DNA of 40,000 nt from assembly GCA_963823985.1 (NCBI GenBank), contig CAWGNR010000006.1:88618-128617 (forward strand), written 5' to 3'. Source of the DNA: an uncultured Chloroflexia bacterium. GTDB lineage: Bacteria > Chloroflexota > Anaerolineae > Anaerolineales > Villigracilaceae. Position 1 is the first letter of the stretch. Each line of letters begins with the position of its first letter. Positions 2,245-23,198 of this stretch are shown here, piece after piece. Under the pieces are notes generated by a model. The model worked only from the letters and a program-made list of their open reading frames with translations. It was not told the DNA's origin and made no database searches. The position numbers and the translations under genes are program-made.

Positions 2245-2250
2245 GACGGC

Positions 2251-3090: not shown

Positions 3091-3141
3091 TTTTTGTTCC
3101 CTTTCTCAAACTCACATTTTGCCGCCCAACGGCTCGCGTTA

Positions 3142-4896: not shown

Positions 4897-4918
4897 TTGA
4901 CAACTGCAGTAATCGGTA
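4897..4918 (+). promoter_or_regulatory. outward-facing -35 box (TTGACA 4897-4902) at the IS110 right end; it pairs with TAGAAT at 3143-3148 after end-joining
   Basis: Joining the RE to the LE through a single TA core gives TTGACA-actgcagtaatcggtat-TAGAAT, a 17-nt spacer. Copy 2 has the same arrangement (7484-7489 with 5749-5754). Confidence 0.55.
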
Positions 4919-5057
4919 CCGGCGGCTGGAGGGACGAGACTTGCCCACGAAACGGACAAAACCTAAAGCCATGAAAAAGGTCATTTTGGCGGTGCGAATC
5001 CAGCCGTCCGCGTGCACGCCGTGTTGGCACGCCTTTTGACCTTAAGATTTTTATGTT

Positions 5058-5399
5058 TTACGGCTGCTCATGAATTAAGGTGTTTAATTTCTTGATAACT
5101 TCATTGAATTGTTCGGACGGCAATTTACAACTAAATCTGGCTTTCCTTGCTTTCCAATCAAGGCTTTTTACTTGATCAGATAGGATTGCGCCTTGGATTT
5201 CTAAACCTTCAGGCATCAAAACTTCAAATGGATAACCTTTGACCTGGCTTGTTATGGGGCAAAGAAGGGCTAAACCAACTTTCCCGTTATAAGCCTTTGG
5301 AGACAAAACTAAGGCTGGTCTGTGTCCTGCCTGCTCATGTCCTGCTTGTGGATTGAATGCAATCCAAACAATGTCGCCACTTTCGGGAACATATGCCAT
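5058..5399 (-). CDS. mazF: MazF/PemK-type endoribonuclease toxin
   Basis: MAYVPESGDIVWIAFNPQAGHEQAGHRPALVLSPKAYNGKVGLALLCPITSQVKGYPFEV. The internal ATG at 5397-5399 is chosen as the start because it lies 4 nt after the mazE stop. The track ORF extends to 5441. Confidence 0.85.
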   Translation of the reverse strand: MAYVPESGDIVWIAFNPQAGHEQAGHRPALVLSPKAYNGKVGLALLCPITSQVKGYPFEVLMPEGLEIQGAILSDQVKSLDWKARKARFSCKLPSEQFNEVIKKLNTLIHEQP

Positions 5400-5403
5400 A
5401 GTT

Positions 5404-5646
5404 TCACCAAGCTTCATTCCCCAAGGATGTTCCGGTGTCAATTTCGTTGTGAAGATTATCTTTTGTGATCCCTGTTAACAATTCATCAAGCGTCCAACTT
5501 GGCGCTGGGACTGGCGTGATAACAATCCTGCCTTTGACGATACTGATTTCTACCAATGAATCGTTTTCCAGTTGGGCATCAACGGCAAAGGCTTTTGGTA
5601 TTCGCAGGGCAAGGCTGTTGCCCCATTTTTGAACTTTTGTGAGCAT
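5404..5646 (-). CDS. mazE: MazE/AbrB-SpoVT-type antitoxin
   Basis: 80-aa ORF MLTKVQKWGNSLALRIPKAFA..., immediately upstream of mazF. Confidence 0.85.
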   Translation of the reverse strand: MLTKVQKWGNSLALRIPKAFAVDAQLENDSLVEISIVKGRIVITPVPAPSWTLDELLTGITKDNLHNEIDTGTSLGNEAW

Positions 5647-5747
5647 AAGGTTATCTCCTATTTGTTTCTACAATAAAGATACACCTTTTTGTTCAATTAA
5701 TCAAGCCCTTTTCTAATTGTTCAGGGGCGTGCCAACGGCCCGCGTTA

Positions 5748-7505
5748 TTAGAATGTCCTTGTTTGGGACGTGGACTCCGCGTATCCTTAAGGGTGATTGA
5801 TCGCCGGGAACGCGGAAGGGACGAGAGCGTTTGGGTTGTCCGCCCGCCGGTATGGGAAGGATCTCATTGAGAGTGAGATCCAAGCCCGCTGCGTTAATTG
5901 GACACCCGGCGGAGACTAATCTGGGACCGGCAAAGTGAAGCCGAGAGCCCGCATCGGTACCTGCAGCTCAAAACCCGAAACCCACGTCCCAAACATAAGA
6001 GGAGTTTAGCATGAAAAAAGGACAAGATACAAGAGGCTACGAAAGGTACATGGCCTTGATACCCACCGGGAATACATCCTGGTGGGAGGGTGGAATGAGG
6101 AGAAGGAGTGGGTTCTCACGCCACGACGAGTAAGCATCGAGAAGTTTGGCGAGTGGGCGAAGAAGAATATTCGTCCGGGGGATATAGTGGTGCTGGAAAC
6201 GACCACGAATGTATGGGCGATCTACGACATTGTGGCGCCGTTGGCGAGCCGGGTCTTGGTGGCGAATGCTGCTGAAGTCTGGGAACTCGCAGGCGCGAGG
6301 GTCAAGACGGACAAGGAAGATATCAAGCGGTTGTTGAAGCTGCTCGTGGGAGGCATCGTGCCCGAAGTGTGGGTGCCGCCGATGGAGGTGAGGGAACTGC
6401 GCGCCTTCATTTCATATCGGAGCCGGTTGGTAAGCACGGCCACAATGATCCGCAATCGCCTGCAGAGCTTGCTGCACAAACACAACTTGCTGCTGCCAGA
6501 AGAAGGCATTCTGGACCAGGGCTGGTGGAATGTGCAATCTTCGATCAGTGGGTTGGAGAAGATGCAGATCCGTCAGGAACTGGCTCTGTTGCAGGAAGTC
6601 GAGAAACTGAAGATAGCAGTCGATGAAGAGTTGGAGCGCCAAAGCACAGGTCCAATCTGGGGCAAACAAGCCTTGCAGATCATGCAGCTGCCAGGCATAG
6701 GGTTCGTTGTGGCAATGACAGTGCTTTCTGCCATTGGAGACATCTCGCGCTTTGAAAATGCAAAGCAGTTGGTAGGCTATGCAGGCATCGGTGCAGGCGT
6801 GCACGACAGTGGCAAAACTCACAAGGAAAAGAAGATCACCAAGAAGGGACGCCGGGAATTACGCTGGGCAATGGTAGAAGCAGCTTGGCGGGCAGTGCGG
6901 AGTTCGCCCTTTTGGAAGGCAGAATACGAGAGACACCTGCAGCGCATGCGCAAACCGAACCAGGCGATTGTGGTGGTTGCCCGGAAGTTACTAATCGCCA
7001 TCTGGCATGTCCTGAGTAAGGAAGAGACCGATATCCATGCAACTGAGGAAGACCTGGCGTACAAAATGCTATTGCTCTCTTGGAGCTTGAGCGAGGATGT
7101 TCGCCAGGGTTTGACCTACAAACAGTTCGCCAAATATGCGCTGATGAAGTTGGGTGTCGAGAAAGACATCACGCGCTTTGTGCGTAAGAATGTACCAAGG
7201 CGATTAGCGCCGAGAGATGAAGTGCTGGCGCGCATGAAGGAGCTCGGCTTAGCCTGAGAAGTAAGCCCGAAGAACAACTGAATAAAGAATGAACAACCCC
7301 GGCATGAAAACCTTGGATTGAGTTTATCGAAAACAAAGGGCTGACGGGGGTGGCGAAGCCTTCCCTATAAATGAAAAATACTGTCCCAAAAAACAAGAAG
7401 CTGCCGTGAGAGAAGGATCTCGATCGGCAGATTTTGATTTGGATGTCTTGTGAAACTGGATCAGAAAGATTTTATCTCAGCACTTGACAACTGCAGTAAT
7501 CGGTA
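5748..7505 (+). mobile_element. IS110-family insertion sequence, copy 2 (transposase start damaged)
   Basis: The left end 5748-6010 is identical by eye to 3142-3404. The coding region is near-identical. The 3' non-coding region 7258-7505 is clearly more diverged than the rest. Confidence 0.85.
6011..7257 (+). pseudogene. IS110-family transposase, N-terminal frameshift removing the first catalytic Asp motif
   Basis: Copy 1 has ATGGCACTGGATATCCACCGG (MALDIHR). Copy 2 has ATGGCCTTGATACCCACCGG at 6051-6070, which is 1 nt shorter and carries substitutions. The frame from ATG 6011 stops at about 6130. The remaining 391-aa ORF (6082-7257) lacks LDIH. Confidence 0.7.
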
Positions 7506-7624
7506 CCGGCGGCTGGAGGGACGAGACTCGCCCACGAAACGGACAAAACCCAAAGCTACGAATAAAGCCATTTTAGCGGTGTGAATCCAGCCGTCCGCGT
7601 GCACGCCGTGTTAGCCCGCTTGTG

Positions 7625-8308
7625 TTATTGAAGGATCGCATAAATATCCTTCAAAGGTGTTTGCTTTCGATCAGTTATCCAATTTTTTACTACAAGATTT
7701 ATGCATTCCATTAAGACATTTGCAATAGCTAAATCGCCAATCAAACCTTCTCTCGTGTCAGTGTTCGATTCCAACATAAGGCCATGAGCGGTCAGAGACA
7801 TAAAACCATACAATTGTGTGTAAAGTTTGTCTAATCCAACATTTTTCGCTGCATCCTCGATTTTTAATCTGGGACGTATATCTTTTCCCCAGTCCGAATT
7901 GAGTAATTCTTTTGTTTTGTCTTCATTGGTAACTTCATCAACAACCCTGCCATGACCAGTATTAAGTTGTTTTCGAGCTATGCGTTTTAATTCATTCCTT
8001 GTAGCGTCAACAAAAGTTTGGGCATTTTCATTTGACTTTGTAATCCAACAAACCCATATAAGACTTTCCAACAAACCACGAGCTAGAATGTTTAAAGGTG
8101 CTGGTAAGTTAGCTTTGGCGCAAATTACACAACCCTCAGACAATTCTACTGCTCGTCTAAAGCTATAGATTAGTAGATCTTCTCGTTGAGTGTTAAAGTG
8201 CCTGTTGGAGTAATCAGACAATCTGTCCTTTGCGACTTGAATTTCATACTCCAAACCGTCAATTTCAATTTGCAAATCTGAGTCTAAGTCTGACATTCCT
8301 TTTCCCAT
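7625..8308 (-). CDS. hypothetical protein (single-gene cassette)
   Basis: 227-aa ORF with its start 21 nt after attC A3 and its stop 9 nt before attC A2. I recognise no motif with confidence. Confidence 0.6.
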   Translation of the reverse strand: MGKGMSDLDSDLQIEIDGLEYEIQVAKDRLSDYSNRHFNTQREDLLIYSFRRAVELSEGCVICAKANLPAPLNILARGLLESLIWVCWITKSNENAQTFVDATRNELKRIARKQLNTGHGRVVDEVTNEDKTKELLNSDWGKDIRPRLKIEDAAKNVGLDKLYTQLYGFMSLTAHGLMLESNTDTREGLIGDLAIANVLMECINLVVKNWITDRKQTPLKDIYAILQ

Positions 8309-8328
8309 ATTTTATTCTACAAGAAGCG

Positions 8329-8456
8329 GGCTAACGGCTCGCGTTACCGGCGGCTGGAGGACGAGACTCACCCACGAAACGGCCAAACCCCAAGGCCACG
8401 AAAAAGCCCATTTTGGCGGTGAGAATCCAGCCGTCCGCGTGCACGCTGTGTTAGCC
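8329..8456 (-). repeat. attC-like site, subfamily A (A3), intact
   Basis: GGCTAACGGCTCGCGTTACCGGCGGCTGG...CCAGCCGTCCGCGTGCACGCTGTGTTAGCC. Confidence 0.8.
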
Positions 8457-8467
8457 CGTTTTTTGAA

Positions 8468-9244
8468 CTAGAAGACACTATTCCAATCGATGATAGCATG
8501 TAAAAGTGCACCAGTAACTAGATTTTCTGATCGGAGCATAATATAGCCGAATAAAAGACTGATAGGAAGGAGAGCCAAAGAAGATATTAATGCCTCCATT
8601 CCAGCCATATCCATAATCGTTATTCTTTGAATGATGTGTCCAAGAGCCATAATGGTTGATGCTAATACCCAACCCCACGTTTTTCCCAGCCATAGCACAA
8701 GCCGTGTTTGCAAATAACCACGAAACCCAAATTCCTCGCTAACCCCAACGACTAGAAATGTCGCCAGTGCCCAGAATTTGCTAAGGGAGATGATAGAGTG
8801 TAGCTGTCTGATGTCAAGATGTTTTGTAACAATGTTGAAGAACAACATAAAGACTGACAGGATAATGCCCAGAAAGAGTGATTTTCCAAGGTTGCGTTTT
8901 GTTATTCCTGAACTAGACCAGGTTTCATGGCGCACTCTCATCATGATCAAGCATGGACCAAAAAACACTACCGTAACAATAAGTTGACGAATGACATTTG
9001 CAAAATGAAATTCTTGACGACTGCTGCCAGAGAATCCTGTCGCTTTAAAAAGCAGGAATAATCCTGAAATCGCTACCCAACCTACAAAGAGAGTTATCAA
9101 AGCACTGATGGAAGATTTCTTCACATCGGAAAATGGGTATTCTTCATAAGTAAATTTGAACGCTTTGGTAAAAAGGTGAACAAAGCTTCCCATTCCTATA
9201 AACATGACGATCAGGAGGGTGAATTCGATTAGGTCATTGTTCAC
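8468..9244 (-). CDS. CPBP-family (CAAX/Abi-type) intramembrane glutamic protease
   Basis: 258-aa multi-pass membrane ORF with VSEEFGFRGYL (EExxxR), ALGHII (FxxxH-like) and a distal HAIIDW. Confidence 0.8.
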   Translation of the reverse strand: MNNDLIEFTLLIVMFIGMGSFVHLFTKAFKFTYEEYPFSDVKKSSISALITLFVGWVAISGLFLLFKATGFSGSSRQEFHFANVIRQLIVTVVFFGPCLIMMRVRHETWSSSGITKRNLGKSLFLGIILSVFMLFFNIVTKHLDIRQLHSIISLSKFWALATFLVVGVSEEFGFRGYLQTRLVLWLGKTWGWVLASTIMALGHIIQRITIMDMAGMEALISSLALLPISLLFGYIMLRSENLVTGALLHAIIDWNSVF

Positions 9245-9296
9245 AGATGCTTTCCTGAGTATAGACCACCAAGTGACACCACTTTGGATATTGACG

Positions 9297-9419
9297 GGCT
9301 AACGGCTCGCATTACCGGCGGCGGTGAGAACCAACCGATTTAGCGGGAAAAGGTTTTCGTTCAGATTCCGCCAATTTGACGGAGCCAGTACCGCCGTCCG
9401 CGTGCATGCATTGTTAGAA
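9297..9419 (-). repeat. attC-like site, subfamily B (B2), intact
   Basis: GGCTAACGGCTCGCATTACCGGCGGCGGT...ACCGCCGTCCGCGTGCATGCATTGTTAGAA. Confidence 0.8.
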
Positions 9420-9427
9420 AGCACGCC

Positions 9428-9673
9428 TTAACGGAACCAGTTCGAAGAGTAGATAAAAGCTCGGGAGCAGACTCCAACACGGCGGGCAAGGCAATTTGGA
9501 AGTGAAGGTACCGGTACACGGCTAACGCTCTCAACAAACTTGTTCAGGATACCTAGAGAGCGACCCCTTTGAGAAGCAAGACAACATAATTTTTTTAACA
9601 TAACTGATACGCACTGCAATTTAGCAAAGACCACCATCGGCACCGCTGGCAAGAAAAGGGGAGACAACATCAT
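9428..9673 (-). CDS. doubtful small ORF in a ~290-bp cassette
   Basis: 81-aa track ORF with an odd composition. Its last ~20 codons are homologous to a decayed stretch in the next cassette (9842-9905). Confidence 0.2.
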   Translation of the reverse strand: MMLSPLFLPAVPMVVFAKLQCVSVMLKKLCCLASQRGRSLGILNKFVESVSRVPVPSLPNCLARRVGVCSRAFIYSSNWFR

Positions 9674-9710
9674 TTTGCCCGTGCCCCAATTCCAAGAAAA
9701 AAAGCGTGCT

Positions 9711-9833
9711 TTCTAACGGCCCGCATTACCGGCGGCGGTGAGAACCAACAGATTTAGCGGAAAAAGGTTTTCGCTCAGAATCGGTCATTTTAGCGGAGCC
9801 AGTACCGCCGTCCGCGTGCATGCATTGTTAGAA
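9711..9833 (-). repeat. attC-like site, subfamily B (B3), intact
   Basis: TTCTAACGGCCCGCATTACCGGCGGCGGT...ACCGCCGTCCGCGTGCATGCATTGTTAGAA. Confidence 0.8.
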
Positions 9834-10105
9834 CGCACCCTTTAACGGAACCAGGCTGGAGATGAGAAAAAGCTGGGGAGCGATGCTCGAAAGACGGCTT
9901 GCAAGATTCATTACCAAAAACACCTTATTGCCATTGTGACACGATAGCGGGCAAGATTCCATCACCTACCAGTACCCAAGATCAGATTCACCGACCTGCC
10001 GCTCATCTTGTTGCGGACAAAACCAGATGGCAAGCAAGGCCGGTGATACACGACAACGAGAATAAAGCCATTTGCTAGCCGCCTTTTTCTAAAACCCGGG
10101 TGCGG

Positions 10106-10234
10106 TTCTAACGGCTCGCGTTACCGGCGGCTGGAGGGACGAGACTCGCTCCCAAAACGGACAAAACTCAAAGCCACGAATAATGCCAATTTGACGGTAC
10201 GAATCCAGCCGTCCGCGTGCACGCCGTGTTAGGC
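10106..10234 (-). repeat. attC-like site, subfamily A (A4), intact
   Basis: TTCTAACGGCTCGCGTTACCGGCGGCTGG...CCAGCCGTCCGCGTGCACGCCGTGTTAGGC. Confidence 0.8.
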
Positions 10235-10246
10235 GCTGTTTTGCCA

Positions 10247-10942
10247 TTATTGTACCCATTCAAAGGTTGAAATAATACTATCTATATCATCTTGCATGTA
10301 AGGTAACATGTTGCTTGGCTCAGCATCGCCTCGATCAAAATAGTACATGGCGAGACCTGTGAAGAAATGGACGCAAAAATCAGTGCCAGAAACCATATAT
10401 TCGATAGCTTGCAATTCATCTTTATCAAGGTCGGGGGTATAAACTTTGGTGAAAGGGGTCTTCCCCAAAGTAACCTGCTCTACTTTGACTGGACGACCAG
10501 AAGAATTCGTAGGACCTGGATGACAGCTATAAGTACGATTCTCAATCGACACATTAAACCATGTCATAATTTGACCACCATCCGACAAATATTTGGATGG
10601 AAGTTGAGCCGATAGTAATCGGTCATCCGTTGGATTGAAGAATAAAATATCGAAATCGGATGGTAAGGTGATAGCAAACCCATATTGTTCATGGATGAGC
10701 TTTTTTCCATCTTGAGTATCAACAAAGGCAGCAGGAATTGATGTTGTTGTGTGTTCTGGCCTCGGTGTCTTGGTCAATGTAACAATTGGATCAATGGTTG
10801 TATTCGTTGACGTCGGCTTAATTACCTGGGCCGACGTAGGTGGTTCTATTGAGTGGGGCACAACGGTATTACAAGAAGTAAACGCTGTGACCATGAGTGA
10901 AAGCACTAATGCTGTGCTGATTATTTTCACGTTGTGTCTCAC
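10247..10942 (-). CDS. putative secreted lipoprotein, function unknown
   Basis: 231-aa ORF with an N-terminal signal MRHNVKIISTALVLSLMVTAFTSC (lipobox-like FTSC) followed by a Thr/Pro-rich linker. Confidence 0.65.
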   Translation of the reverse strand: MRHNVKIISTALVLSLMVTAFTSCNTVVPHSIEPPTSAQVIKPTSTNTTIDPIVTLTKTPRPEHTTTSIPAAFVDTQDGKKLIHEQYGFAITLPSDFDILFFNPTDDRLLSAQLPSKYLSDGGQIMTWFNVSIENRTYSCHPGPTNSSGRPVKVEQVTLGKTPFTKVYTPDLDKDELQAIEYMVSGTDFCVHFFTGLAMYYFDRGDAEPSNMLPYMQDDIDSIISTFEWVQ

Positions 10943-10966
10943 TTGATTTAATGGTTTTGAACGGCG

Positions 10967-11094
10967 GCCTAACGGCTCGCGTTACCGGCGGCTGGAGGGA
11001 CTGGATTCCTTTGCGAAATGGAAGAACTCAAAGCCAGAACCAACTTATTTTGACGGTACGAATTCCCGCCGTCCGCGTGCACGCCGTGTTAGGC
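10967..11094 (-). repeat. attC-like site, subfamily A (A5), central part diverged
   Basis: GCCTAACGGCTCGCGTTACCGGCGGCTGG...CCCGCCGTCCGCGTGCACGCCGTGTTAGGC. The stop codon of ORF 11089-11736 is the TAA inside GCCTAAC (minus sense). Confidence 0.8.
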
Positions 11095-11736
11095 TGCGTT
11101 TCTGTATCTCTCTGGACCATAGATAATCACACCTGATGTGCTGTCCTCCATTAATGTGTCAGAAGAAAACCGCATAAGCTGAATCACCATGATCAAATCG
11201 CCCGCTGCTCCGGACGCATTGAAGACAACAAAGAATAAAAGGAAAGGCACAAAGGCAGTTGGTACGACCATCATGAGTAGCAGGCCAACAGTGGTGAGTA
11301 ACACAAGAGGGGACAAGCCTACAACGAGGAATTGGTTTCGCGGAAAGTATACGCCGGACGGCGCGGCTGCATAAGGAAAGAGACCCTGAAATCCAAACTT
11401 CGGGCGGTGGTTTGAGAACAGCCAGTAAAACAAGCCGTGTACAAGTTCATGAAAGATAAGCACTGCAATCAGAGCGAGTCCTAGGTTTGGAAACAATGCT
11501 GGAGGAACAACGAGTGAAAATCCGGCGGGGATGGAACGTAGTAAATCGTGAAGTCGCATCCCATCAAGGGCATTTGGTCGAATTGCATTTGCGAATAGCA
11601 CGAGCAGCCAACCAACGATCAGGAGCAACATAATGCCCGTAATCACTGCAACAATCACAAATTTTAGATTCTTTGATGGTTCGAGAACAGTGTATTTGGA
11701 ATAATTGGAAGGAAGAGACTTATTTGCTTTCATCAA
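11089..11736 (-). CDS. membrane protein with HExxH motif (DUF3267-like putative zinc peptidase)
   Basis: 215-aa ORF with several TM helices and LIFHELVHGLFYW. The family name is from memory. Confidence 0.6.
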   Translation of the reverse strand: MMKANKSLPSNYSKYTVLEPSKNLKFVIVAVITGIMLLLIVGWLLVLFANAIRPNALDGMRLHDLLRSIPAGFSLVVPPALFPNLGLALIAVLIFHELVHGLFYWLFSNHRPKFGFQGLFPYAAAPSGVYFPRNQFLVVGLSPLVLLTTVGLLLMMVVPTAFVPFLLFFVVFNASGAAGDLIMVIQLMRFSSDTLMEDSTSGVIIYGPERYRNAA

Positions 11737-11885
11737 GGAATAATAAACCTAACACCATGACTGGACAAGAAGCCTAACGGTTTGCGTTAGTGGTTGGCGG
11801 GCGGGCTTGGATAATGCCTAAGAGCAGGGAAAACCCAAAGCCAGAAAAATGCTTGTAAATCGCGCAGAATCCGGCCAATCCACTG

Positions 11886-13819
11886 GTAGGGTCAGGGAAT
11901 GGCGCCTGGGCATAAGCCTGGTTTCCATTCCCTGCCACCTCGAACCGGACGTGAGGTTTTCCCTCACGCGAAGCGGAGCTCTCCGACAACCTTCTTCCTG
12001 CGGCTTTCAAGGTTAGACTGCACATATTCCGGGTAGGTAGAAGAATTCTAAACCCTGTTGACGTAGTAAGGCTCTAAAGGTAAGTTCATCCCAGTGTCCA
12101 CGCGATCCCAGTTTTGAGCGCAGCCATTGTTCCAGACGATAGCGGACATAGCGGTCAAGTTGCTGGAATTTCAGGGTACTGTTCCCAAGCCGGAAGTAAT
12201 TCCGCCAACCGCGAATGATCCGATTGAGAAACTTTATTACTTCAGATAAGGGATTACTCAACCGCATTCTTTCAGTGATAAGGTGGATTTTACTGCGAAT
12301 GGCTTTCATGGCTTTAGGAGCGGGCCAAATGTAGGGCAGGAGCTTACCACTCTTTCTTGCTTTCTTCTTGTGGAAGTGAAAGCCGAGAAAATCGAAACCA
12401 TCTCGACCCATGTCCACAATTCGGGTTTTCGTGGGATGAAGTGTGAGTTTCAAAATATACATGATTTGCTTGACCTTTTGCAGGGCAGTTTCAGCCTCCC
12501 GTTTTGACCGACAGATGATGACGAAATCATCCGCATATCGAAACAGTTTGCCGAGAGAAGAATATCGTTCTGCCCAATACATATCCAGTACATGCAGGTA
12601 AATGTTAGCTAACAGGGGGCTGATAACACCGCCTTGAGGAGAACCTATTTGGGTAACGTTCTGTACACCATCTTCCATGACACCCGCTTTCAGCCATAGA
12701 CAAATGAGTTTCAGTACTCGCCGGTCACTAATCCGCCTCTTGAGCAGAGACAGGAGCATTGAATGGTCTATTGTGTCGAAGTAACTCTGTATATCGGCAT
12801 CAACCACCCACCAGCCAGCGATGAGAGACTTTTTCACTTCGGATACGGCCTGTTGTGCGCTCCGTTTGGGACGGAACCCATAGGAATTTTCTCGGAAGTT
12901 GGCTTCAAAGATCGGTTCGATCACAAGCTTACATGCCTGTTGCACCACGCGGTCACAAACCGCGGGAATTCCCAGCGGCCTTTGTTTGCCATCAGGCTTC
13001 GGGATGAAGACCCGTAACACTGGCTTCGGGCGATATGTACCTGCTTTCAGGTCTTGCGCAATCAGATAAAGAAACTGTTCTACTCCCTCCCGTTCCACAT
13101 CTTCGATGGAGACACCATCTACTCCGGCGCTGCCACCGTTCCTGCGGACTTCTTCCCAAGCCTGGCTCAGAATGTCAGGCCGGAATATGCGGTCATAGAG
13201 TGCATGGAACCGACGGTTCCTGTTCCTCTTGGCCGTCAGGTATAGTTTGCGCTGGAGTTCTCGTGATTTGTCTTGTGGTGGAATTGGCCTTGCGGCATGC
13301 ACCGTCACTTACTTCCTCGCTGAACCTGGTTGAAGTAGAGACCCTTTCCTCCTGACGAGTTCTGTTGTCTCGTCAATCAACGGTACTATGGTCTCCTCCG
13401 ACTTCTCATCTGGCTAAAATCTTAGGATTTCACCTTGCGGCTTATACCTGCGGTTACACTGTTTCTGTATCAGCGACCAGATGAGACCTCTCCTGTTCCA
13501 TCGCCTGCTTTCACAACATCCCATACTCCCTACACCGGAGAGTTCTTGACGGCTGCTTTTCAGGGTCTTCGCCGCTTCTGTTGCCTTCGCCATGCGTGAC
13601 AGGCTCGGCTCTCTCTTGCTCCCCTTGCGGGGCTAACATGTCGGTGCTGCAAGTTTCACTTTATGTTACGGACTGCTGTTTTGCTTCCCTTTCTCAAGGA
13701 GTTACAACGCTTCGGCACATCCGGTCACCCCGATGCACCGGTTGCCTGCTACCTGACGGCCTGACCCTTATCAGGACTGGACTTTCACCAGCTAGCAGAC
13801 GATGACTTTCAGGACACAC
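11886..13819 (-). mobile_element. group II intron (ORF-containing, no endonuclease domain evident)
   Basis: On the minus strand the 5' end reads GTGTGTCCTGAAAGTC. A domain V-like hairpin CGCGTGAGGGAAAACCTCACGTCCG is followed by a domain VI-like hairpin ending ...CCCTAC. The RT/maturase ORF lies inside. Ends are +/- a few nt. Confidence 0.75.
12013..13308 (-). CDS. group II intron reverse transcriptase/maturase
   Basis: 431-aa ORF with NGGSAGVDGVSIEDV, RPLGIP, SYGFRP, QGGVISPLLANIYL and FRYADDFVIICRS (YADD), plus a C-terminal maturase-like region. No HNH tail is evident. Confidence 0.9.
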   Translation of the reverse strand: MTVHAARPIPPQDKSRELQRKLYLTAKRNRNRRFHALYDRIFRPDILSQAWEEVRRNGGSAGVDGVSIEDVEREGVEQFLYLIAQDLKAGTYRPKPVLRVFIPKPDGKQRPLGIPAVCDRVVQQACKLVIEPIFEANFRENSYGFRPKRSAQQAVSEVKKSLIAGWWVVDADIQSYFDTIDHSMLLSLLKRRISDRRVLKLICLWLKAGVMEDGVQNVTQIGSPQGGVISPLLANIYLHVLDMYWAERYSSLGKLFRYADDFVIICRSKREAETALQKVKQIMYILKLTLHPTKTRIVDMGRDGFDFLGFHFHKKKARKSGKLLPYIWPAPKAMKAIRSKIHLITERMRLSNPLSEVIKFLNRIIRGWRNYFRLGNSTLKFQQLDRYVRYRLEQWLRSKLGSRGHWDELTFRALLRQQGLEFFYLPGICAV

Positions 13820-14425
13820 CACGCTTTGTTCGGCGGCTCTTATTACTGAAAGATTACATTGATAATGCAACCATCAAAAAAGCCAGACGTGCGAACGCAT
13901 TGGCAAGCACATGCAAACTGATACTTAAGCGAATGTCGCGCTTCCACATAACGATATAGCCCAACGCAGTTCCCAATAAAAACACGGTGAGAAAACCAAA
14001 TAGTTGCCAACTATGATAAAGTCCAAAAAATAAGCCACCAACAAGCGGAGTCCAAGCCCCATAGCGTGAAATACGAGGTAGAAGGTAGCCCCTAAAATAT
14101 AATTCTTCAATCCAAGGTAGAACGATTCCCGTTACGACAAGTTGAAATGCGAAGGTAATAACCAAGATATTCTTTGTATAGGCAAGATATTGAGATTGTT
14201 CTTCAAGAAACATCCATTTGGGCAATCCAGAAAAAAGTCGTTCTGTCAAAAAGGCATTGATAGGAGTTATTAGTGTTATTAGCAAGAAAACGATAATAAA
14301 TGCGCCGATAAAAACGAGAGCAAACACGCTCCAAGGCACTTTCTCTCGATAAAGTACAATGCCATTCAGGCTCAATCGCCCATTCAATTTTTTGCCTTCA
14401 TAAAACATAATTCCCAATAAAACTG

Positions 14426-15952: not shown

Positions 15953-16210
15953 AATTCCCAATAAAACTGGTAAGTCTATGAAAAGAATTGCCAGAAGAAA
16001 TGCAAACAACGGCGGATAACCAACTGAGTTGAGTATTGACTTTAGCGCAATAAATGCTACCGTTGCGAGTGCGCCAGGCATTATGTGTAGAAGAAATGAT
16101 TGTAAGAGCGTGTGCTGAGATGCCGTAGAGGAACTTTCGTATTTATTCATTAACAATTCCCTTCAGCCTAACCGAGTTGTTCTTGATTTTACCTTGTTGT
16201 GCCGAGTGCC

Positions 16211-16339
16211 GCCGAACGGCCCGCGTTACCGGCGGCTGGAGGGACGAGACTCGCCCACGAAACGGACAAAATCCAAAGCTACGAAAAAGCCTGATTTGAC
16301 GGTGAGAATCCAGCCGTCCGCGTGCACGCCGTGTTAGGC
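16211..16339 (-). repeat. attC-like site, subfamily A (A7), intact
   Basis: GCCGAACGGCCCGCGTTACCGGCGGCTGG...CCAGCCGTCCGCGTGCACGCCGTGTTAGGC. Confidence 0.8.
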
Positions 16340-16364
16340 GTTTTTAAGATGCATAAACTCCTCC

Positions 16365-16901
16365 CTAAGCGTCAACATAGCGAAGGATTTCTTCCACGAC
16401 GCTGACAAGTGGCTGTATTGCATCTATGACAATTCCGTTGCTGGGTATGTCTTCTTTCGTTCGATGCAATCGCGTAACGAGTTCCTTTTCTTCTGGTTTT
16501 CCGCCCCAGTCAGTCGGATCTCGCGCCACGCGCTCATCAAGCCGCCGATACAATGTGTCAAGGTCGTTGACCTCAAGAACAAAAACGCCATCCAATAAAT
16601 CTATGAATTTTGAAAAATTCCTCGAACCACCACAAAAGAAAGAGATTGCTTGGCTGTGATCAGCGATCACGGATTTAACTTTGTCTATATCCCAAAGATG
16701 ATGTTCCTGTTGCCATACGGCTTTGTCCCTCTCGCTCTTATGGACAGGTTCATTTACCGGTTCTCCTGTCTTTGGGTCGCCCCGATATTTCAACTCTCGG
16801 TCACCGTGGATGACGTGATAACCGCGTCGCTGCAATTCTTCAGCCACCGCGGTTTTGCCCGTGCCAGAGACTCCCTCGATAAGATAATTTCTCTTACCCA
16901 T
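16365..16901 (-). CDS. P-loop NTPase, nucleoside/nucleotide kinase-like
   Basis: 178-aa ORF with a Walker A motif GVSGTGKT near the N-terminus, of small kinase-like size. Confidence 0.65.
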   Translation of the reverse strand: MGKRNYLIEGVSGTGKTAVAEELQRRGYHVIHGDRELKYRGDPKTGEPVNEPVHKSERDKAVWQQEHHLWDIDKVKSVIADHSQAISFFCGGSRNFSKFIDLLDGVFVLEVNDLDTLYRRLDERVARDPTDWGGKPEEKELVTRLHRTKEDIPSNGIVIDAIQPLVSVVEEILRYVDA

Positions 16902-16996
16902 TGTCTCTTAACTTTTTGGTTGACGTACAAATCTTGCCTTTCGATAGATTTCGCTAACAGAGGGTAAGGGAGAGGGGCGACCTCTCCCTCCCCGTT

Positions 16997-18968
16997 GTCG
17001 CAATGGGGTTGATTCCCCATATTATACCGGCGTGCGGCTTTCCCGCGCCGGGCGACCCCCGCTGCCTTGCCCTGAATGAGGGAACACGACCTTACTCTAA
17101 GTCAGTTGCCCATATAAAGACACCAAGCCCATGCGGGAAAGGTGTTTGATCAGCCAGCGCCGGTTGTCGCCGCGCGAGATACGTTTGAACTTCATAGAAC
17201 GCAGGCGAGCCCGGATCCAATTGTCGAGAAGCGTGAATTGATCTTTGACCGAGGCAAAATGTGTAGCAAAGTAACGGGCAAACCCAATGAGAACGCGGTT
17301 GAGCTTTTGAATAGCTTCCAGGCCGAAGTTATGGTGGCGAACGGTGAGGGAGCGCACCCGTTCCTTGAATTTCTCTATGGACTTTTGGCGGACAGAAACG
17401 CGACGGCGCGAGAGATGGAACCCCAGGAAGTCGAACCCTTCGACAAAGTTGGTGATCTTTGTTTTAGTGGGGGACAAGCTGAGGCCCAAGTCCTGCCGGA
17501 TGATATTGTCCACGAAAATCAGAGCTTGTTTGGCTTGGGCGTGGCTGCGGCACAAGACCACGAAATCGTCGGCGTAGCGCACGAAGCGGTAGCCAGCTTG
17601 TGTCAATCGTTGGTCGAGGACATCCAGGACGATGTTCGCCAGCAGGGGCGAAATCACACCGCCTTGGGGAGTGCCGGAAAGCGTAGGGAGGAAAGAACGA
17701 TCTTCCATTACGCCCGCCGAGAGAAACTCGCGGAGGATGCATAGGATATTACCGTCGGCAACCCGTTCAGCCACCTGGTTCAGGATAAGGATGTGGGGTA
17801 TATTATCGAAGAAGGCTTGGATGTCAGCATCCACGACCCATTTGTAACCAGCTCTATGGGCAGTAATAACAGCTTGAACTGCCTGATGAGCATTACGACC
17901 AGGGCGGAAACCAAACGAGCGCTCAGAGAAGTGTGGCTCGAAGATGGGTTCAAGGAGCGAACGCACAACTTCTTGAGCCACGCGGTCTCTGACAGTGGGG
18001 ATGCCCAACGGGCGTAGTTTGCCTTGCCCTTTGGGGATATAGGCACGGCGGAGGGGAGCGGCGTGGTAGGACCCCTTGTGTTTGAGGTCGAACATCAGGG
18101 CGGCAAGGTTGTCGTCCAGGTTGGCTTCAAACGAGCGGATGTCTACCTTGTCGACTCCGGCTGCTCCGCGATTGCGCTTAACGGCCTGGAAGGCACGGCG
18201 CATACGAGCCATGTTGATTTGTCCGGTCAGGGAATGGGATTTACGGCGTTGGTCGGGCAACAGACTCTCCTTGCAGAGAGGATGTGTTGTGAAGTAACAG
18301 AGGTTGAACCAGCGGGGCATTCTCACTTCGAGCGGCGTCTTTTCCGGTCAGCAGGATTACCCGCCTGCCCTGGCGGGCTAGGCCAGGGAAACAAGCCAGG
18401 CGGATGAGAAATGGCATCTCCATGCTGGGAAACATACCAGAACGAGAGAGTATCAGCCTTTTCTGGAAACTCCTGTTGCCTCACGGCAGACAGGTACAGC
18501 CCTTCGTTACTCTGAATGAGCAGTAACTACTATAGCTGTGCTGACTACCCCAAACTGACCGGCCAGCAGGAGTGACCGGACAGACCGCAGCATAGGGAGG
18601 TCACTTCGCACAGCTTACATCGTCCCGATGTCCTTCGGGATAGACCTCCGTTACCCAAGCCTCTGACTGACACTGTCCAGGGCAAGGGACTGCGTGGGTT
18701 CTCAGTTGGTTAGCACACTATCCTTTTATGACCGTGAAGACACCAAGCACGCTCCAGGTAGGACGACCCTAACTGCGTGTGGGAAGTCCTGGCAATTGTC
18801 GGTTACCAATGCTTCAGCCTTAGGCGCAGCCTGGCATACCTGGACCCGCCGAAACGGCCTGCCCTGAGCTTGTCGAAGGGTGCCTCCCCAGTCACCCTGT
18901 GGCTTGCCCACTTCGCGACTACTCCTTGCGGGGTAGCCCTGGGAACTATGTGGCCAGCAGTTCCGCAC
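16997..18968 (-). mobile_element. group II intron (second, different copy)
   Basis: On the minus strand the 5' end reads GTGCGGAACTGCTGGCC. A domain V-like hairpin CCGGCGCGGGAAAGCCGCACGCCGG has a 2-nt bulge. A domain VI-like hairpin ends ...TTGCGAC. The RT ORF lies inside. Ends are approximate. Confidence 0.7.
17097..18326 (-). CDS. group II intron reverse transcriptase/maturase
   Basis: 409-aa track ORF with NRGAAGVDKVDI, RPLGIP, SFGFRP, QGGVISPLLANIVL and VRYADDFVVLCRS. The true start is probably the internal MARMRRAF at 18212. Confidence 0.9.
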   Translation of the reverse strand: MRMPRWFNLCYFTTHPLCKESLLPDQRRKSHSLTGQINMARMRRAFQAVKRNRGAAGVDKVDIRSFEANLDDNLAALMFDLKHKGSYHAAPLRRAYIPKGQGKLRPLGIPTVRDRVAQEVVRSLLEPIFEPHFSERSFGFRPGRNAHQAVQAVITAHRAGYKWVVDADIQAFFDNIPHILILNQVAERVADGNILCILREFLSAGVMEDRSFLPTLSGTPQGGVISPLLANIVLDVLDQRLTQAGYRFVRYADDFVVLCRSHAQAKQALIFVDNIIRQDLGLSLSPTKTKITNFVEGFDFLGFHLSRRRVSVRQKSIEKFKERVRSLTVRHHNFGLEAIQKLNRVLIGFARYFATHFASVKDQFTLLDNWIRARLRSMKFKRISRGDNRRWLIKHLSRMGLVSLYGQLT

Positions 18969-19029
18969 CGCCGCAGAGCAGCACGGATCAGACTTTCACT
19001 GATTGGATAATGTACCGTTCAACTCACGC

Positions 19030-19151
19030 GCCTAACGGCCCGCATTACCGGCGGCGGTGAGAACCAAACGATTTATCGGAAAAGGTTCTCGCTCAGAATC
19101 AGCCATTTTAACGGAGCCAGTACCGCCGTCCGCGTGCATGCATTGTTAGCC
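19030..19151 (-). repeat. attC-like site, subfamily B (B4), intact
   Basis: GCCTAACGGCCCGCATTACCGGCGGCGGT...ACCGCCGTCCGCGTGCATGCATTGTTAGCC. Confidence 0.8.
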
Positions 19152-19222
19152 ACCGCCAAGCCTTTAAGGGACATCGCCTATGCTTTGAGCCTCTGACAGA
19201 GCAGATGAGATGATCTCATCCT

Positions 19223-19462
19223 TCACGCCTTGCTTTCGGAGACTTCAATGAGAGTTGAAATCTCGACGCTACCTTCAAGTCTTTCCATATCTGCGCGCAG
19301 ACCTTGTCCGATATATGCCTTGATCAAAGCTTGATATCCTGTAAAGCCAAGCAGGGGCGCAATTCGCTTTAAGTCTTCTACCACATCTTCGGGAATACGC
19401 AAGCTGACCATTTTCATCGGACGATTTTTCTGCAAACGTTGGGAAAGTTTATTGATTTTCAT
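19223..19462 (-). CDS. brnA: BrnA-like antitoxin
   Basis: 79-aa ORF with VSLRIPEDVVEDLKRIA, downstream of and overlapping the BrnT-like gene. Confidence 0.7.
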   Translation of the reverse strand: MKINKLSQRLQKNRPMKMVSLRIPEDVVEDLKRIAPLLGFTGYQALIKAYIGQGLRADMERLEGSVEISTLIEVSESKA

Positions 19463-19745
19463 AAGCTTCTCTTTCTACTTTTGTTACCAATCGGGCGGAA
19501 ATAATACGGATAATGTCATCACGCAAAACATAAACCACAAACAACAATTGCCAGGTCGTGGATAGGCCAATGATCGTTTCGCGGAGTTCACCATCAATGG
19601 TTTCGTCTTCAAGGTAATAAACGAACGGGTCGAAAAATGCTTCACAAGCCAGCTCGAAGGAAACATTGTGCTTGCGGAAGTTGGCGGCGGCTTTGAGACG
19701 ATCCCATTCGAAGGCAATGTTATGAAGGGAATATCTGACATTCAT
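19449..19745 (-). CDS. brnT: BrnT-like (DUF497) ribonuclease toxin
   Basis: 98-aa ORF with FEWDRLKAAANFRKHNVSFELACEAFFDP...IIRIISAR. The toxin-first order is typical of brnTA. Confidence 0.75.
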   Translation of the reverse strand: MNVRYSLHNIAFEWDRLKAAANFRKHNVSFELACEAFFDPFVYYLEDETIDGELRETIIGLSTTWQLLFVVYVLRDDIIRIISARLVTKVEREAYENQ

Positions 19746-19807
19746 CGTTGCAAAGTATATTGCTTCGTATATCTCTTGTCAATACGTTTGGACAAAAAGA
19801 AGAAGGT

Positions 19808-19937
19808 GGCTAACGGCTCGCGTTACCGGCGGCTGGAGGGACGAGACTTGCTCACGAAACGGAACAAAATCCAAAGCCACGAAAAAGGTCATTTTAGCGG
19901 TGAGAATCCAGCCGTCCGCGTGCACGCCGTGTTAGGC
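19808..19937 (-). repeat. attC-like site, subfamily A (A8), intact
   Basis: GGCTAACGGCTCGCGTTACCGGCGGCTGG...CCAGCCGTCCGCGTGCACGCCGTGTTAGGC. The stop of ORF 19932-20330 is the TAA inside GCCTAAC (minus sense). Confidence 0.8.
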
Positions 19938-20330
19938 TGAGCCCGCCATTCTTGTTTTTTGCAGTCCAGCGATTCCCATTGTGATGCACATCATAGATAG
20001 AATCAAAACAGGCCAATGGTTATTCAGAAAAGTTACCGCTGCTTCAAGAAAAATAACCAATTGCGAAAACTTGATAAGAGCATAGGCGACCATTACCACC
20101 AAGAGCAACCCTTCAAAGGCTTTCTGGTAACTCTGCCTAAGTTGTAGCCGTTCCCATTCCTCGTAACTGTTGTTTCCAGCGGCTAGGCTGCCTAGAACCG
20201 CGACCGTCAGCATAAAAGATAGGAGTTCGAAATCTGGGATGAATAGAAATGCAATGCCGATGATCCCGACAACAAGTGTCAGAATAACCATGAAACGGTA
20301 GCTCACTCTAGCCCTACTTTTTGTGTTCAT
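19932..20330 (-). CDS. small multi-pass membrane protein, unknown function
   Basis: 132-aa ORF with four hydrophobic segments. It is a single-gene cassette. Confidence 0.6.
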   Translation of the reverse strand: MNTKSRARVSYRFMVILTLVVGIIGIAFLFIPDFELLSFMLTVAVLGSLAAGNNSYEEWERLQLRQSYQKAFEGLLLVVMVAYALIKFSQLVIFLEAAVTFLNNHWPVLILSMMCITMGIAGLQKTRMAGSA

Positions 20331-20487
20331 GACCCAGATCTTCTCCTTTCAGAGATTCGTCACTCGGCGAATCCCAATCATCTAGATCAACCATCACTCG
20401 TGCCTTTCCATGTTTTTTGCTTGACGATGATGCCCTGTTCACAAGGTACTAATCGTAACAGTTGACCAAGCCTTTGCTCAGCCCAAC

Positions 20488-22187
20488 GAGACTGTCGAAA
20501 AAGTGTTTTTTCAAGAGCAAACCCCGGCCGGGCGATGACTGGAAGCGCAGTTTCCTGGCCGGAAGGCAAGGAGACTGGGGATTTGATCCCCCATGGGGCT
20601 AGTGGAGCGCCCCAAAAGAGTGGATTTTGCCGATATTATGTACTATAGCGAATAACCTCCATTGTACATCCACCTTAGATTTGGAACGTAGCGTGAATTG
20701 ATTCATGCGTTTTTGGACGCAGATATTGGCAAAGACCGGTTCAACGATCCCCAGTCGCCTGCCATAAATGCGCTTGCCCTCATCACTATCGATCTTGGCT
20801 TTCATCGCATCGATCAGGTTGGGGGATTGCCTCTCAACTTGAATGGAAAGATTGCGGCGTACAGTATTTGCCTTCTTCAAGCAACGTGCCCTCAAAGGAC
20901 AGGCAGCGCAATCTTCAGGGCGAGCATGGTAGAGATCATAGGTGCGATGGCGGTTGACCTGGTTGCGAGCATAGCAGGTCAATTCCTTCCCTTGCGGACA
21001 ACGATACGCCTGTTTGTCTGGATCGAACGAGAAGTCAGAAACAGTGAAGAGACTCGGCTTGGCGTCTGGACGCTGCCGGCCGTGGATGCCGTCCTTGAAA
21101 CGTTCTTGCTCGGCAAAGCGTGGATCGCGTGTGCGGTATTGGATGTCGGGGATGTAAGCATCGATCTTTTCATCTTTGCAGATCTTCAAGCTGTTGAGCG
21201 AGTGATAGTTGGGATCGGCGGTCAATTGCTTGCCTTGAAAATAGGTTTCATCTTTTCCGATGGCGACGGCGTTTTTTTTTGCGCTATCCAACATGGGCTT
21301 AAGATTTTCGTGATCCTGGCTGGCGAAGGCTTCCGCAGCGAGAATGACCTGATGCTTGGAATCGACCAGCGCCTGCGCGTTGTAGCCCTGGATGACCCCA
21401 TGAGAAGAAGGCATCTTCACCGATTCGTTGTCGATCACATTGCTTTGGATCTCCTTACCTTCGCTGCCGCGCTTCGGTTCCCGATCCTTTAGAAATTCAT
21501 TGAGCCGCTCGACCTGCCGCTGGAAGCGTTGTTCGCGCTTCTTTTGACGTTCGATTTCAACTTGAGGATGTTGATCTGCCTGGGCATGTTCTTCCATCAC
21601 GCGCTGGAGTTTTTCCTGCAGCTTATCACGCTTGTGTTTGAGTTCATCGAGCGTGCCGCTCCATTCTTTGGAGACATTGGCAGAGAGTTTGACGCCATCG
21701 AGAGAAAAGTGCGTGCCGCCCAGCAAATCCAATTCATCGCAGACCGTGAGAATATCGCTGAAGATGGAAGAGATCTCTTTTTGCATGGAAGACACAAAGG
21801 CGGCAATCGTGCTGTGATCAGGAGCATACCCATAAGAGAGCGCAATGAAGAGGATGTTTTCGTGGCAGGCGCGTTCGATCTGGCGGGAACTGATCATGCC
21901 TTTGGCGTAGGCTAGCAGGATGACCTTGAGCAGGATCTTGGGATGGATGGCGGTTGCGCCGGTCTCGTCGTTGTTGTAGCGCGCATCAAAGACCGACAGG
22001 TCGATATGTTTCTCCACCAATTGGCTGATGGTGTGCTCTAGCGTACCTGGGACAAGTTGGTCCTGCAGGGAAATCGGGAGCATGACCAATTGATCTTCAT
22101 TGCATGGTTTGAATTTTGCCATAGGTTCCTCTATCTCATAGAACCCCCTAGCTTTGCACTAGATTCTCCCACTTTTTCGACAGGCTC
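20488..22187 (-). mobile_element. IS1182-family insertion sequence
   Basis: 18-bp terminal inverted repeats GAGACTGTCGAAAAAGTG (20488-20505) and CACTTTTTCGACAGGCTC (22170-22187), 17/18 matching. It is flanked by AAC/AAC and contains a single 507-aa transposase ORF. Confidence 0.8.
20599..22122 (-). CDS. IS1182-family DDE transposase
   Basis: 507-aa ORF. The N-terminus MAKFKPCNEDQLVMLPISLQDQLVPGTLEH...HPKILLKVILLAYAKGMISSRQIERACHENILFIAL matches the family pattern as I recall it. Confidence 0.8.
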   Translation of the reverse strand: MAKFKPCNEDQLVMLPISLQDQLVPGTLEHTISQLVEKHIDLSVFDARYNNDETGATAIHPKILLKVILLAYAKGMISSRQIERACHENILFIALSYGYAPDHSTIAAFVSSMQKEISSIFSDILTVCDELDLLGGTHFSLDGVKLSANVSKEWSGTLDELKHKRDKLQEKLQRVMEEHAQADQHPQVEIERQKKREQRFQRQVERLNEFLKDREPKRGSEGKEIQSNVIDNESVKMPSSHGVIQGYNAQALVDSKHQVILAAEAFASQDHENLKPMLDSAKKNAVAIGKDETYFQGKQLTADPNYHSLNSLKICKDEKIDAYIPDIQYRTRDPRFAEQERFKDGIHGRQRPDAKPSLFTVSDFSFDPDKQAYRCPQGKELTCYARNQVNRHRTYDLYHARPEDCAACPLRARCLKKANTVRRNLSIQVERQSPNLIDAMKAKIDSDEGKRIYGRRLGIVEPVFANICVQKRMNQFTLRSKSKVDVQWRLFAIVHNIGKIHSFGALH

Positions 22188-22327
22188 AACGGCTCGCATT
22201 ACCGGCGGCGGTGAGAACCAACCGATTTATCGGGAAAGGTTTTCGCTCAGAACCAGCCATTTTAACGGAGCCAGTACCGCCGTCCGCGTGCATGCATTGT
22301 TAGCTGGCGCTTTGACCGAAAAACACT

Positions 22328-22657
22328 CTATTGATCTTGAAGCGCTGTTTCCAAAACTTCTGTAACCCAACCATTAAGGCTTTTATCTTTCAACTTGGCT
22401 TGAATATAGGCTTTCCGATGTAACTCGGCAGGCAAACGGAGGACGAATTTTCCCGAAAATGGCTTTTCTGGGGACTTACCACGCTGAGCGCAGAAATCAA
22501 GATAATCATCAACTGACTCCCGAAATGCCTGTTGAACTTCTTCAACCGTTGTGCCTTCAAACGTAATGACATCGCGGACATTGATCACTTCCCCGAATAA
22601 AATGCCCGCTTCCTCATCAATTTCAACCTTACCGATATACCCTTTATATTCCATCAT
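22328..22657 (-). CDS. hicB: HicB-family antitoxin
   Basis: 109-aa ORF with YKGYIGKVEIDEEAGILFGEV and a C-terminal RHH-like LRLPAELHRKA. It overlaps hicA by 4 nt. Confidence 0.8.
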   Translation of the reverse strand: MMEYKGYIGKVEIDEEAGILFGEVINVRDVITFEGTTVEEVQQAFRESVDDYLDFCAQRGKSPEKPFSGKFVLRLPAELHRKAYIQAKLKDKSLNGWVTEVLETALQDQ

Positions 22658-22908
22658 GGCTTTACTCCTGCCGCTTCAAGAAACCTGCGAATGGACTTCA
22701 CTGCACCTTTATTGATTTCTTTACGCGGATGAGGACGATGAAACACGGCCCTCACATCTTTCAAAGCAACACGAACGCGTGAACCGCTGCCTTCTGAAAT
22801 TTCAGCGCCTAGAGCAACAAAGAGAGCTTCGACATCCCGCCAAGCAATGTTGGCTCGCTCAGGCTTTTCGAATATGGCTTGTAACGTTTTGCGGTGTTTT
22901 CGGTCCAC
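22654..22908 (-). CDS. hicA: HicA-family mRNA interferase toxin
   Basis: 84-aa ORF with RKTLQAIFEKPERANIAWRDVEALFVALGAEISEGSGSRVRV. Confidence 0.8.
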   Translation of the reverse strand: MDRKHRKTLQAIFEKPERANIAWRDVEALFVALGAEISEGSGSRVRVALKDVRAVFHRPHPRKEINKGAVKSIRRFLEAAGVKP

Positions 22909-22987
22909 GGCGAAATAATATCAGAAAATGATACTGCAATCAAGGGTTTTTATACCCCATTTTTGGAGCTGTATTTCCAAAGAAGCC

Positions 22988-23079
22988 AGCTAACGAATAA
23001 CGAATTAAGGATTGATGCGGCGGAAGGGAACAAGGGAAAGCAAGGGGTCCGGGTGCCGCCGCATCAATCCGAGTTGGAC
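22988..23079 (-). repeat. attC-like site, short variant (C1)
   Basis: AGCTAAC...GTTGGAC ends with a perfect 15-bp stem GGATTGATGCGGCGG (23009-23023) / CCGCCGCATCAATCC (23056-23070). The lower flank is complementary to the B5 upper flank. Confidence 0.65.
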
Positions 23080-23198
23080 TAAGCCGGACGAGGAAGGGGA
23101 CTTGCCTTAGATTTGGAAATTAAAGCCACATTCTCTTCCTGAGAATCATACGATATTGCTCTCCACCAATATACAGGAATATTGTACATGAAAAAATT

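Follow-up and report, generated by a model that had tools for sequence, protein, structure and literature searches.

Offset complementarity, in which the outer sequence at the start of a gene cassette pairs with the far side of the cassette's own attC site, is said to have been described for class 1 integron cassettes by Hall, Stokes and colleagues in the 1990s. Arrays of a related kind were reportedly named CALIN, for cluster of attC sites lacking integron integrase, by Cury et al. in 2016. A cassette is defined as beginning at the R' box's first T (PMC2674596) and cassettes are bounded by GTTRRRY (PMC3053210), and from these boundaries the offset complementarity follows directly. The locus described here lies in a 40-kb stretch of a contig from an uncultured Chloroflexia bacterium (CAWGNR010000006.1, positions 88,618 to 128,617; hereafter the window), of which positions 1-22994 are taken up by a series of units separated by long inverted repeats. 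The repeats are very probably attC sites and the units gene cassettes, forming an integron array of the sedentary type. Part of the evidence for this is the pairing noticed in a sequence-only reading of the window, according to which the flank outside the GTT end of one repeat is the reverse complement of the flank outside the AAC end of the next repeat, and not of the other end of the same repeat.

The array contains 13 complete cassettes and one cut by the window edge (Table 1). A motif search finds 12 right-hand and 10 left-hand arms of the repeat family between positions 382 and 22301, where chance would give none or fewer than one. Once the insertions present inside five of the repeats are mapped, the region resolves into 13 sites and 13 complete inter-site units. 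The 13 sites belong to a single sequence family, measure 114-122 nt from AAC to GTT with the triplets conserved, and fold as hairpins. All are imperfect inverted repeats bounded by RYYYAAC and GTTRRRY and within the 57-141 bp known for attC. Eight are intact; of the interrupted ones, three carry IS110-family elements, one a group II intron and one an IS1182 element. The units have the organization of gene cassettes, with one gene or none, uniform orientation and the attC downstream, and all domain-bearing open reading frames (ORFs) are on the minus strand.

Table 1. Cassettes of the array and the features at its terminus, in window coordinates; fractions give matching positions between the R'' and R' flanks of the same cassette.
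Feature	Position	Strand	Own attC	Genes or other content	R'' flank	R' flank	Pairing	Remarks
Further cassette, 3' part	1-383	-		Partial ORF, minus strand				Array runs on past the window start
Cassette 1	384-3129	-	382-496	Alpha/beta-hydrolase gene 2251-3090	494-496 + 2244-2250	3121-3130		IS110-like insert 497-2243 after attC GTT
Cassette 2	3130-5735	-	3128-3141 + 4919-5025	MazE/MazF genes 5058-5646	5023-5033	5726-5736	11/11	attC split by IS110-family copy 3142-4918
Cassette 3	5736-8334	-	5734-5747 + 7506-7612	DUF5677 protein gene 7625-8308	7610-7621	8324-8335	12/12	attC split by IS110-family copy 5748-7505
Cassette 4	8335-9302	-	8333-8452	Rce1/CPBP-like membrane protease gene 8468-9244	8450-8459	9294-9303	10/10	
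Cassette 5	9303-9716	-	9301-9415	Without ORF	9413-9426	9704-9717	14/14	
Cassette 6	9717-10111	-	9715-9829	Without ORF	9827-9840	10098-10112	14 bp + one 1-nt bulge	Paralogue of cassette 5
Cassette 7	10112-10972	-	10110-10230	ORF 10247-10942	Starts 10228	Ends 10973	7 bp, then indel	
Cassette 8	10973-11777	-	10971-11090	DUF3267 protein gene 11089-11736	11088-11095	11771-11778	8/8	
Cassette 9	11778-16216	-	11776-11885 + 13820-13830	Rce1/CPBP-like gene from 13854	13828-13837	16208-16217	10/10	Divergent attC copy; pairing includes the non-consensus CGAAC
Cassette 10	16217-19035	-	16215-16335	AAA_18 kinase-like protein gene 16365-16901	16333-16340	19029-19036	8/8	Second group II intron in 5' leader
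Cassette 11	19036-19813	-	19034-19147	BrnT/BrnA genes 19223-19745	19145-19154	19805-19814	10/10	
Cassette 12	19814-20486	-	19812-19933	Membrane ORF of 132 aa, 19932-20330	19931-19942	20476-20487	11/12	A/C mismatch at position 4
Cassette 13	20487-22993	-	20485-20487 + 22191-22301	HicA/HicB genes 22328-22908	22299-22308	22985-22994	10/10	Nearest array end; attC split by IS1182-family element
Array terminus and candidate attI	22992-23135	-		Conserved GAATTAAGGATTGATGCGGCG...				Adjoins AAC at 22994
IS4-family element	23196-24391	-		Transposase 23216-24292				Inverted repeats 23196-23223 / 24364-24391; NF033591, 178.6 bits

All nine flank pairs listed in the sequence-only reading were reproduced on recomputation, with their coordinates and scores. 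The pair 7610/8335, given there as 10/10, runs on to 12/12, while the pair 9827/10112 is confirmed as 14 bp with a single bulged base. The four cassettes that had not been listed pair as well: the flank of cassette 1 matches at 9/10 once the insert 497-2243 is excluded, cassette 7 has 7 bp followed by an indel, and two more pair at 8/8, one of which (16333/19036) spans an intron.

When each GTT-side flank was scored against each AAC-side flank, the cassette's own partner gave the row maximum in 11 of the 13 rows. The summed length of perfect runs is 116 for cassette-own ends, as opposed to 65 when the flanks on either side of a single attC are compared; among 200,000 random re-pairings (mean 61.6, maximum 105) none reaches 116, and chance is excluded as the source of the offset pairing. 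In aligned mini-hairpins of the own pairing, 80% of the cells are paired and 38 compensatory cells are changed on both sides, with a covariation score of 0.46 that none of 500 shuffles reaches, while same-attC pairing has 66.7% paired cells, a value reached by 79 of 500 shuffles, and a covariation of 0.20. Positions 1-10 outward from the triplet are paired in at least 10 of the 13 cassettes, which gives an effective stem of about 10 bp. The statement that a flank does not pair with the adjacent one holds only in relative terms: many cassettes have the core consensus GTTAGSC, and for this reason adjacent flanks still match over 3-9 bp.

The same pattern is found outside the window. In 28 independent metagenome cassettes, taken as units between two repeats of the family, own-end runs have a mean of 8.7 as opposed to 4.8 for same-attC flanks, and none of 20,000 permutations reaches the observed sum. 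An outer R' at the cassette start that is complementary to the cassette's own R'' and not to that of the neighbor thus characterizes both the array and these 28 further cassettes, and one cassette of a Chloroflexia metagenome-assembled genome (MAG) pairs at 13/13. A lone mismatch in own pairs recurs at position 4 (GTTA versus GTTG, A/C in the bottom strand), in cassette 12 (19934 versus 20484) and in two metagenome cassettes, of contigs L139 and L125. Contig L156 has what appears to be the L139 cassette, equal to it in its spacing of 863 bp and in the printed flanks, but free of the position-4 mismatch.

Excision, circularization and folding of each site had been suggested as a check of the pairing. 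After removal of the five insertions, each site was rebuilt as it would stand in the circular cassette and folded as DNA. The reconstituted sites do fold better than the linear adjacent ones: the mean folding energy is -31.1 kcal/mol in the circularized and -26.0 kcal/mol in the linear form, a gain of about 5 kcal/mol (Wilcoxon p=0.003), and the terminal stem has 10.5 base pairs as opposed to 4.8. Sites given non-cognate flanks as a control reach -25.3 kcal/mol. For two sites the z-scores of the fold are -3.7 and -3.9 when reconstituted, compared with -0.2 and -1.8 in the linear form, in which the terminal stem is absent. The gain is identical whichever neighboring repeat is assigned to the cassette, and therefore the circularization test confirms the pairing and is neutral as to strand, crossover end and orientation. 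Rfam gave one intron domain and no match for the repeats.

Homologues of the attC repeats, with 81-94% identity, are present in four contigs of Chloroflexota MAGs (L051, L092, L097 and L102). The contig scan used a 17-mer, which has many chance matches in GC-rich genomes, and true attC homologues were found in four of 117 loci among the matches listed. The family also occurs in at least 120 metagenome contigs. In L102, an ORF of 325 amino acids located about 800 bp from the homologous attC is an integron integrase (TIGR02249, 443 bits with a cutoff of 265), and in contig L230 four attCs are followed by the same integrase. Both contigs contain a complete integron, with intI adjoining attI and the array, an arrangement that the window does not show. 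In L102 one cassette end (...GCGCCCAAC) adjoins an attC, in L230 it adjoins the attI side, and homology stops exactly after AAC; the 43 nt that are comparable, as the L102 contig starts there, are 100% identical. This cassette end, and an attI-like sequence found beside three cassettes, show that the units are discrete, are bounded at the triplet and occur in different contexts.

The integrases of L102 and L230 share 98% protein identity over residues 8-199, where the L230 contig ends, but in a comparison of L102 770-1000 with L230 8417-8700 at the DNA level the first ~20 codons of intI and the entire attI region are unrelated. Two causes are considered, recombination with its breakpoint inside intI or an assembly that is chimeric. 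In the reverse complement of L051 (2584-3454), attCs of the same family contain extra GC-rich hairpins of 20-30 nt in both arms, for example ACATCGTCCCCGTCAGGGGA after GGCTCGCG; a tiny insert, mobile or derived by slippage, is a possible origin.

By five independent lines of evidence, the minus strand is the one on which the cassettes read, and the recombinogenic bottom strand is the plus strand. Every ORF matched to a Pfam or NCBIfam family lies on the minus strand, namely the hydrolase, MazEF, DUF5677, two Rce1-like proteases, DUF3267, AAA_18, BrnTA and HicAB. All plus-strand folds have an unpaired T, 23 positions in when counted from the outer end of R'', together with a GT bulge; both are on the arm facing 5'-AAC-3', which is the arm that the published rule gives for the extrahelical bases (G16, T23/24) of the recombinogenic strand (PMC5027507). 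The paralogous cassettes 5 and 6 share the low-coordinate attC with the 60 nt adjoining it, but not the attC at their other end. In L102 and L230, intI is located to the right of attCs of the same orientation, on the plus strand, and reads away from the array. Finally, the GCGCCCAAC end, which abuts an attC in one contig and the attI side in the other and in which homology ends after AAC, supports the same orientation of the cassettes. The crossover is therefore placed at AA/C of the plus strand, where each attC has its low-coordinate end, and every attC is assigned to the cassette that adjoins it at higher coordinates. The description of the partner as the next element upstream, and of the pairing core as downstream, is correct under this minus-strand orientation, for which there is independent evidence, and under that orientation only.

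A cassette of the array begins with a short 5' leader, in most cases contains a single gene or else two genes of a toxin-antitoxin pair, and ends with its own attC on the 3' (low-coordinate) side. According to the proposed mechanism, the plus (bottom) strand folds into a recombinogenic hairpin, and an integron integrase would cut it inside the 5'-AAC-3' that bounds the attC at low coordinates, after the second A and before the C. A cassette entering as a circle opened at AA/C would carry the outer half of its R box (TTRRRY and 3-7 more bases) to its 5' end, one attC away from the partner R''. An attC of the linear array would in this way be a hybrid, with R'' from its own cassette and the outer R' from the neighbor, and the full stem of 10-14 bp would be restored only by circularization. 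Opening of the circle inside the triplet accounts for the offset complementarity, and this explanation, already put forward in the sequence-only reading, is supported by the pairing, the folding and the recomputation of the flanks. By the same reasoning the cassettes were presumably inserted by an IntI and may still be excisable.

The high-coordinate end of the array is marked by the conserved sequence GAATTAAGGATTGATGCGGCG..., which follows AAC beside three different cassettes, in the window and in contigs L235 (1641-1669) and L146 (1600-1800). Its occurrence beside different cassettes in separate contigs makes it a candidate attI, although the attI regions of L102 and L230 do not resemble it. 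The ending of the array at 22994 against this sequence also speaks for the orientation given above. No integrase was seen beside it in the window, L235 or L146. At the window junction a 7-bp tandem duplication (TAACGAA twice) spans the array end, a perfect 15-bp hairpin lies next to it (23009-23023 / 23056-23070), and the motif search finds no attC motifs to the right of 22301. The segment 22992-23087 (AAC...GTTGGAC, with the 15-bp hairpin) was considered as an attC of another kind and rejected: its arms are grossly asymmetric, it has no downstream partner flank GTCCAAC, and it acts as a conserved terminus. Beyond the IS4 element lie genes of HTH_17, ArsR-like and redox type.

The flank complementarity and the folding gain are exactly symmetrical, and would fit equally well if the plus strand were the top strand, with a G/TT crossover at the high-coordinate end of an attC owned by the cassette on its low-coordinate side. 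Such an orientation would also put both group II introns of the array in the bottom strand, where published group IIC-attC introns are found, antisense to the cassettes (PMC3001079). It is nevertheless very improbable, as every cassette gene would be antisense, the extrahelical bases would be on the wrong arm, the paralogous cassettes 5 and 6 would share the wrong attC, the last cassette would be left without one, intI sits at the other end in L102 and L230, and a single cassette end adjoins either an attC (L102) or the attI side (L230). Even more remote is the view that the repeats are hairpins unrelated to integrons, such as repetitive extragenic palindromic (REP) or bacterial interspersed mosaic elements, miniature inverted-repeat transposable elements (MITEs) or bidirectional terminators, with flank matches arising as a by-product of their consensus. 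The repeats are indeed GC-rich and intergenic, with A-rich and T-rich tails, and adjacent flanks share a consensus of 3-9 bp, but positions 4-10 vary from cassette to cassette and stay complementary only in the offset pairing (the 38 compensatory cells, matched in 0/500 shuffles), while the flanks of the same repeat carry no signal. The ends are AAC and GTT without direct target duplications; the flanks are inverted, not direct as in a MITE or REP, and covary with the flank of the next repeat; and in L102 and L230 the homologous repeats adjoin the gene of a true integron integrase. The sequence-only reading had called the pattern hard to explain with a MITE, REP or terminator repeat, and such an origin is refuted by the covariation and the integrase-linked relatives. 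Several observations do weigh against a minus-strand integron array. The L box pairs poorly and is non-canonical in the predicted folds, and in those of minimum energy the G present at position 16 is not clearly outside the helix. Purine enrichment of the plus strand is weak (GC skew 0.01, AT skew 0.13), too weak for use as a strand indicator, for which it was dropped. Both group II introns have the same sense as the cassettes, whereas the published IIC-attC introns are in the bottom strand. Neither intI nor a remnant of it was found in a six-frame Pfam scan of 22995-26200, by tblastn with IntI of L102 (E values up to 10), or among the annotated genes of the right flank in the 40-kb window.

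With 13 attCs and no intI in 40 kb, the array qualifies as a CALIN within the window, where at least two attCs and no nearby integrase define the class; an integrase elsewhere in the genome is possible and, as there is no intI in the window, any integrase would have to act in trans. CALIN cassettes can be acted on in trans by an IntI encoded elsewhere in the genome. The attCs might also be genuine but the array a dead relic, with the extended complementarity merely inherited from insertion and no longer used. This is possible, if the less probable status, and is consistent with the missing intI, the five of 13 attCs broken by IS elements or an intron, the cassette gene disrupted by an insertion sequence (IS) and the IS4 element at the attI-like end. 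On the other hand, eight attCs are intact, nine of the 13 pairs are perfect over at least 10 bp where decay after insertion would be expected to leave more mismatches, and an IntI elsewhere could still act on the array. A more tentative proposal, which we consider rather doubtful, starts from the cassette-specific R box of ~10 bp (up to 14) in 41 cassettes and takes it to be kept by compensatory change; the array might then still be shuffled by an integrase in trans, and the extra 3-7 bp with the A-rich and T-rich tails might be required by this integrase clade or serve in addition as a terminator-like insulator between cassettes. The 41 cassettes include those of the present array, in which the 17 kb next to the attI-like end are free of any integrase.

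Several mobile elements of the array lie in or next to attC sites. The IS110-family copies at 3142-4918 and 5748-7505 are 95% identical and interrupt two neighboring attCs at an identical place, after GCGTT. A degenerate relative (497-2243) follows the R'' GTT of the first attC, and a Chloroflexia contig (L097, 7-1737) contains its 85% homologue at the same attC position. These elements (NF033542, 'RNA-guided transposase') sit at fixed attC points, each directly after GTT, and in this position resemble the IS1111-attC group. The IS1182-family element (20488-22187; 1700 bp, NF033551, 286 bits) has 18-bp inverted repeats and AAC on both sides, the repeat being at 22188-22190. The true end of the attC it splits had been placed beyond the element, and indeed the outer end with the cassette-matching flank is 20476-20487.

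The group II intron at 11886-13819 (RF02003, TIGR04416) splits the attC of cassette 9, 8 nt from R'' after the AAC, and the second one (~16958-19027), unrelated to the first, is located 8 nt inside the 5' end of the next cassette, after G/TT. They are similar to group IIC-attC introns in lying in or next to attC sites, but differ in their sense orientation, being in the top strand instead of the bottom strand. Homologues of the two are present in L197 and L129. The motif 'cgctaac' at 16951-16957 was considered as a cassette end and rejected, as the true partner of 16333-16340 is 19029-19036, beyond the second intron. The Rce1/CPBP-like gene of cassette 9 (13854-16156) is broken by an IS3/IS481-like element (~14460-15900), with rve and HTH ORFs at 14462-15899, whose own reading frame is fragmented. 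The ORF-less cassettes 5 and 6 (9416-9714 and 9830-10109) have in common the attC and ~60 nt alongside it and are otherwise divergent; they may carry small RNAs or promoters.

The offset pairing of R' and R'' is an already known principle and the array is a previously undescribed instance of it, which departs from the known pattern only in a somewhat longer cassette-specific stem and in the lack of an integrase in cis. Being a textbook consequence of the crossover position, the pairing leaves the knowledge of integron recombination unchanged. Its value lies in establishing attC identity from sequence alone and in fixing all cassette boundaries, including those at the five attCs broken by mobile elements, which makes possible the correct annotation of a 23-kb array in a phylum with little-studied integrons. 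More unusual for specialists are the attC-targeting IS110-family elements and the pair of sense-oriented group II introns.

Compared with class 1 cassettes and their 59-base element, the array has the same RYYYAAC...GTTRRRY ends, imperfect hairpin and extrahelical T opposite the AAC arm, and likewise has cassettes that start at the first T of R', a crossover within the triplet and R'/R'' pairing restored only in the circle. It differs in its long attCs (114-122 nt), which form a single sequence family, in a cassette-specific stem of ~10 bp (up to 14) instead of the 7-bp core, in an L box that is non-canonical in predicted folds and in the absence of resistance genes. The similarity to the Vibrio cholerae superintegron, with its VCR repeats, extends to the long array, the homogeneous attCs of ~120 nt, the many cassettes of unknown function, the toxin-antitoxin cassettes (here MazEF, BrnTA and HicAB) and the ORF-less cassettes. 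The phylum is different, as the attC family matches Chloroflexota MAGs, and so are the absence of an adjacent intI in the window and the heavy colonization by IS110-family elements and group II introns. With CALIN the array shares the presence of two or more attCs (here 13) without a nearby intI, none being found within 17 kb of the attI-like end. Unlike them, it keeps an attI-like terminus common to other contigs, and its close relatives in L102 and L230 are complete integrons.

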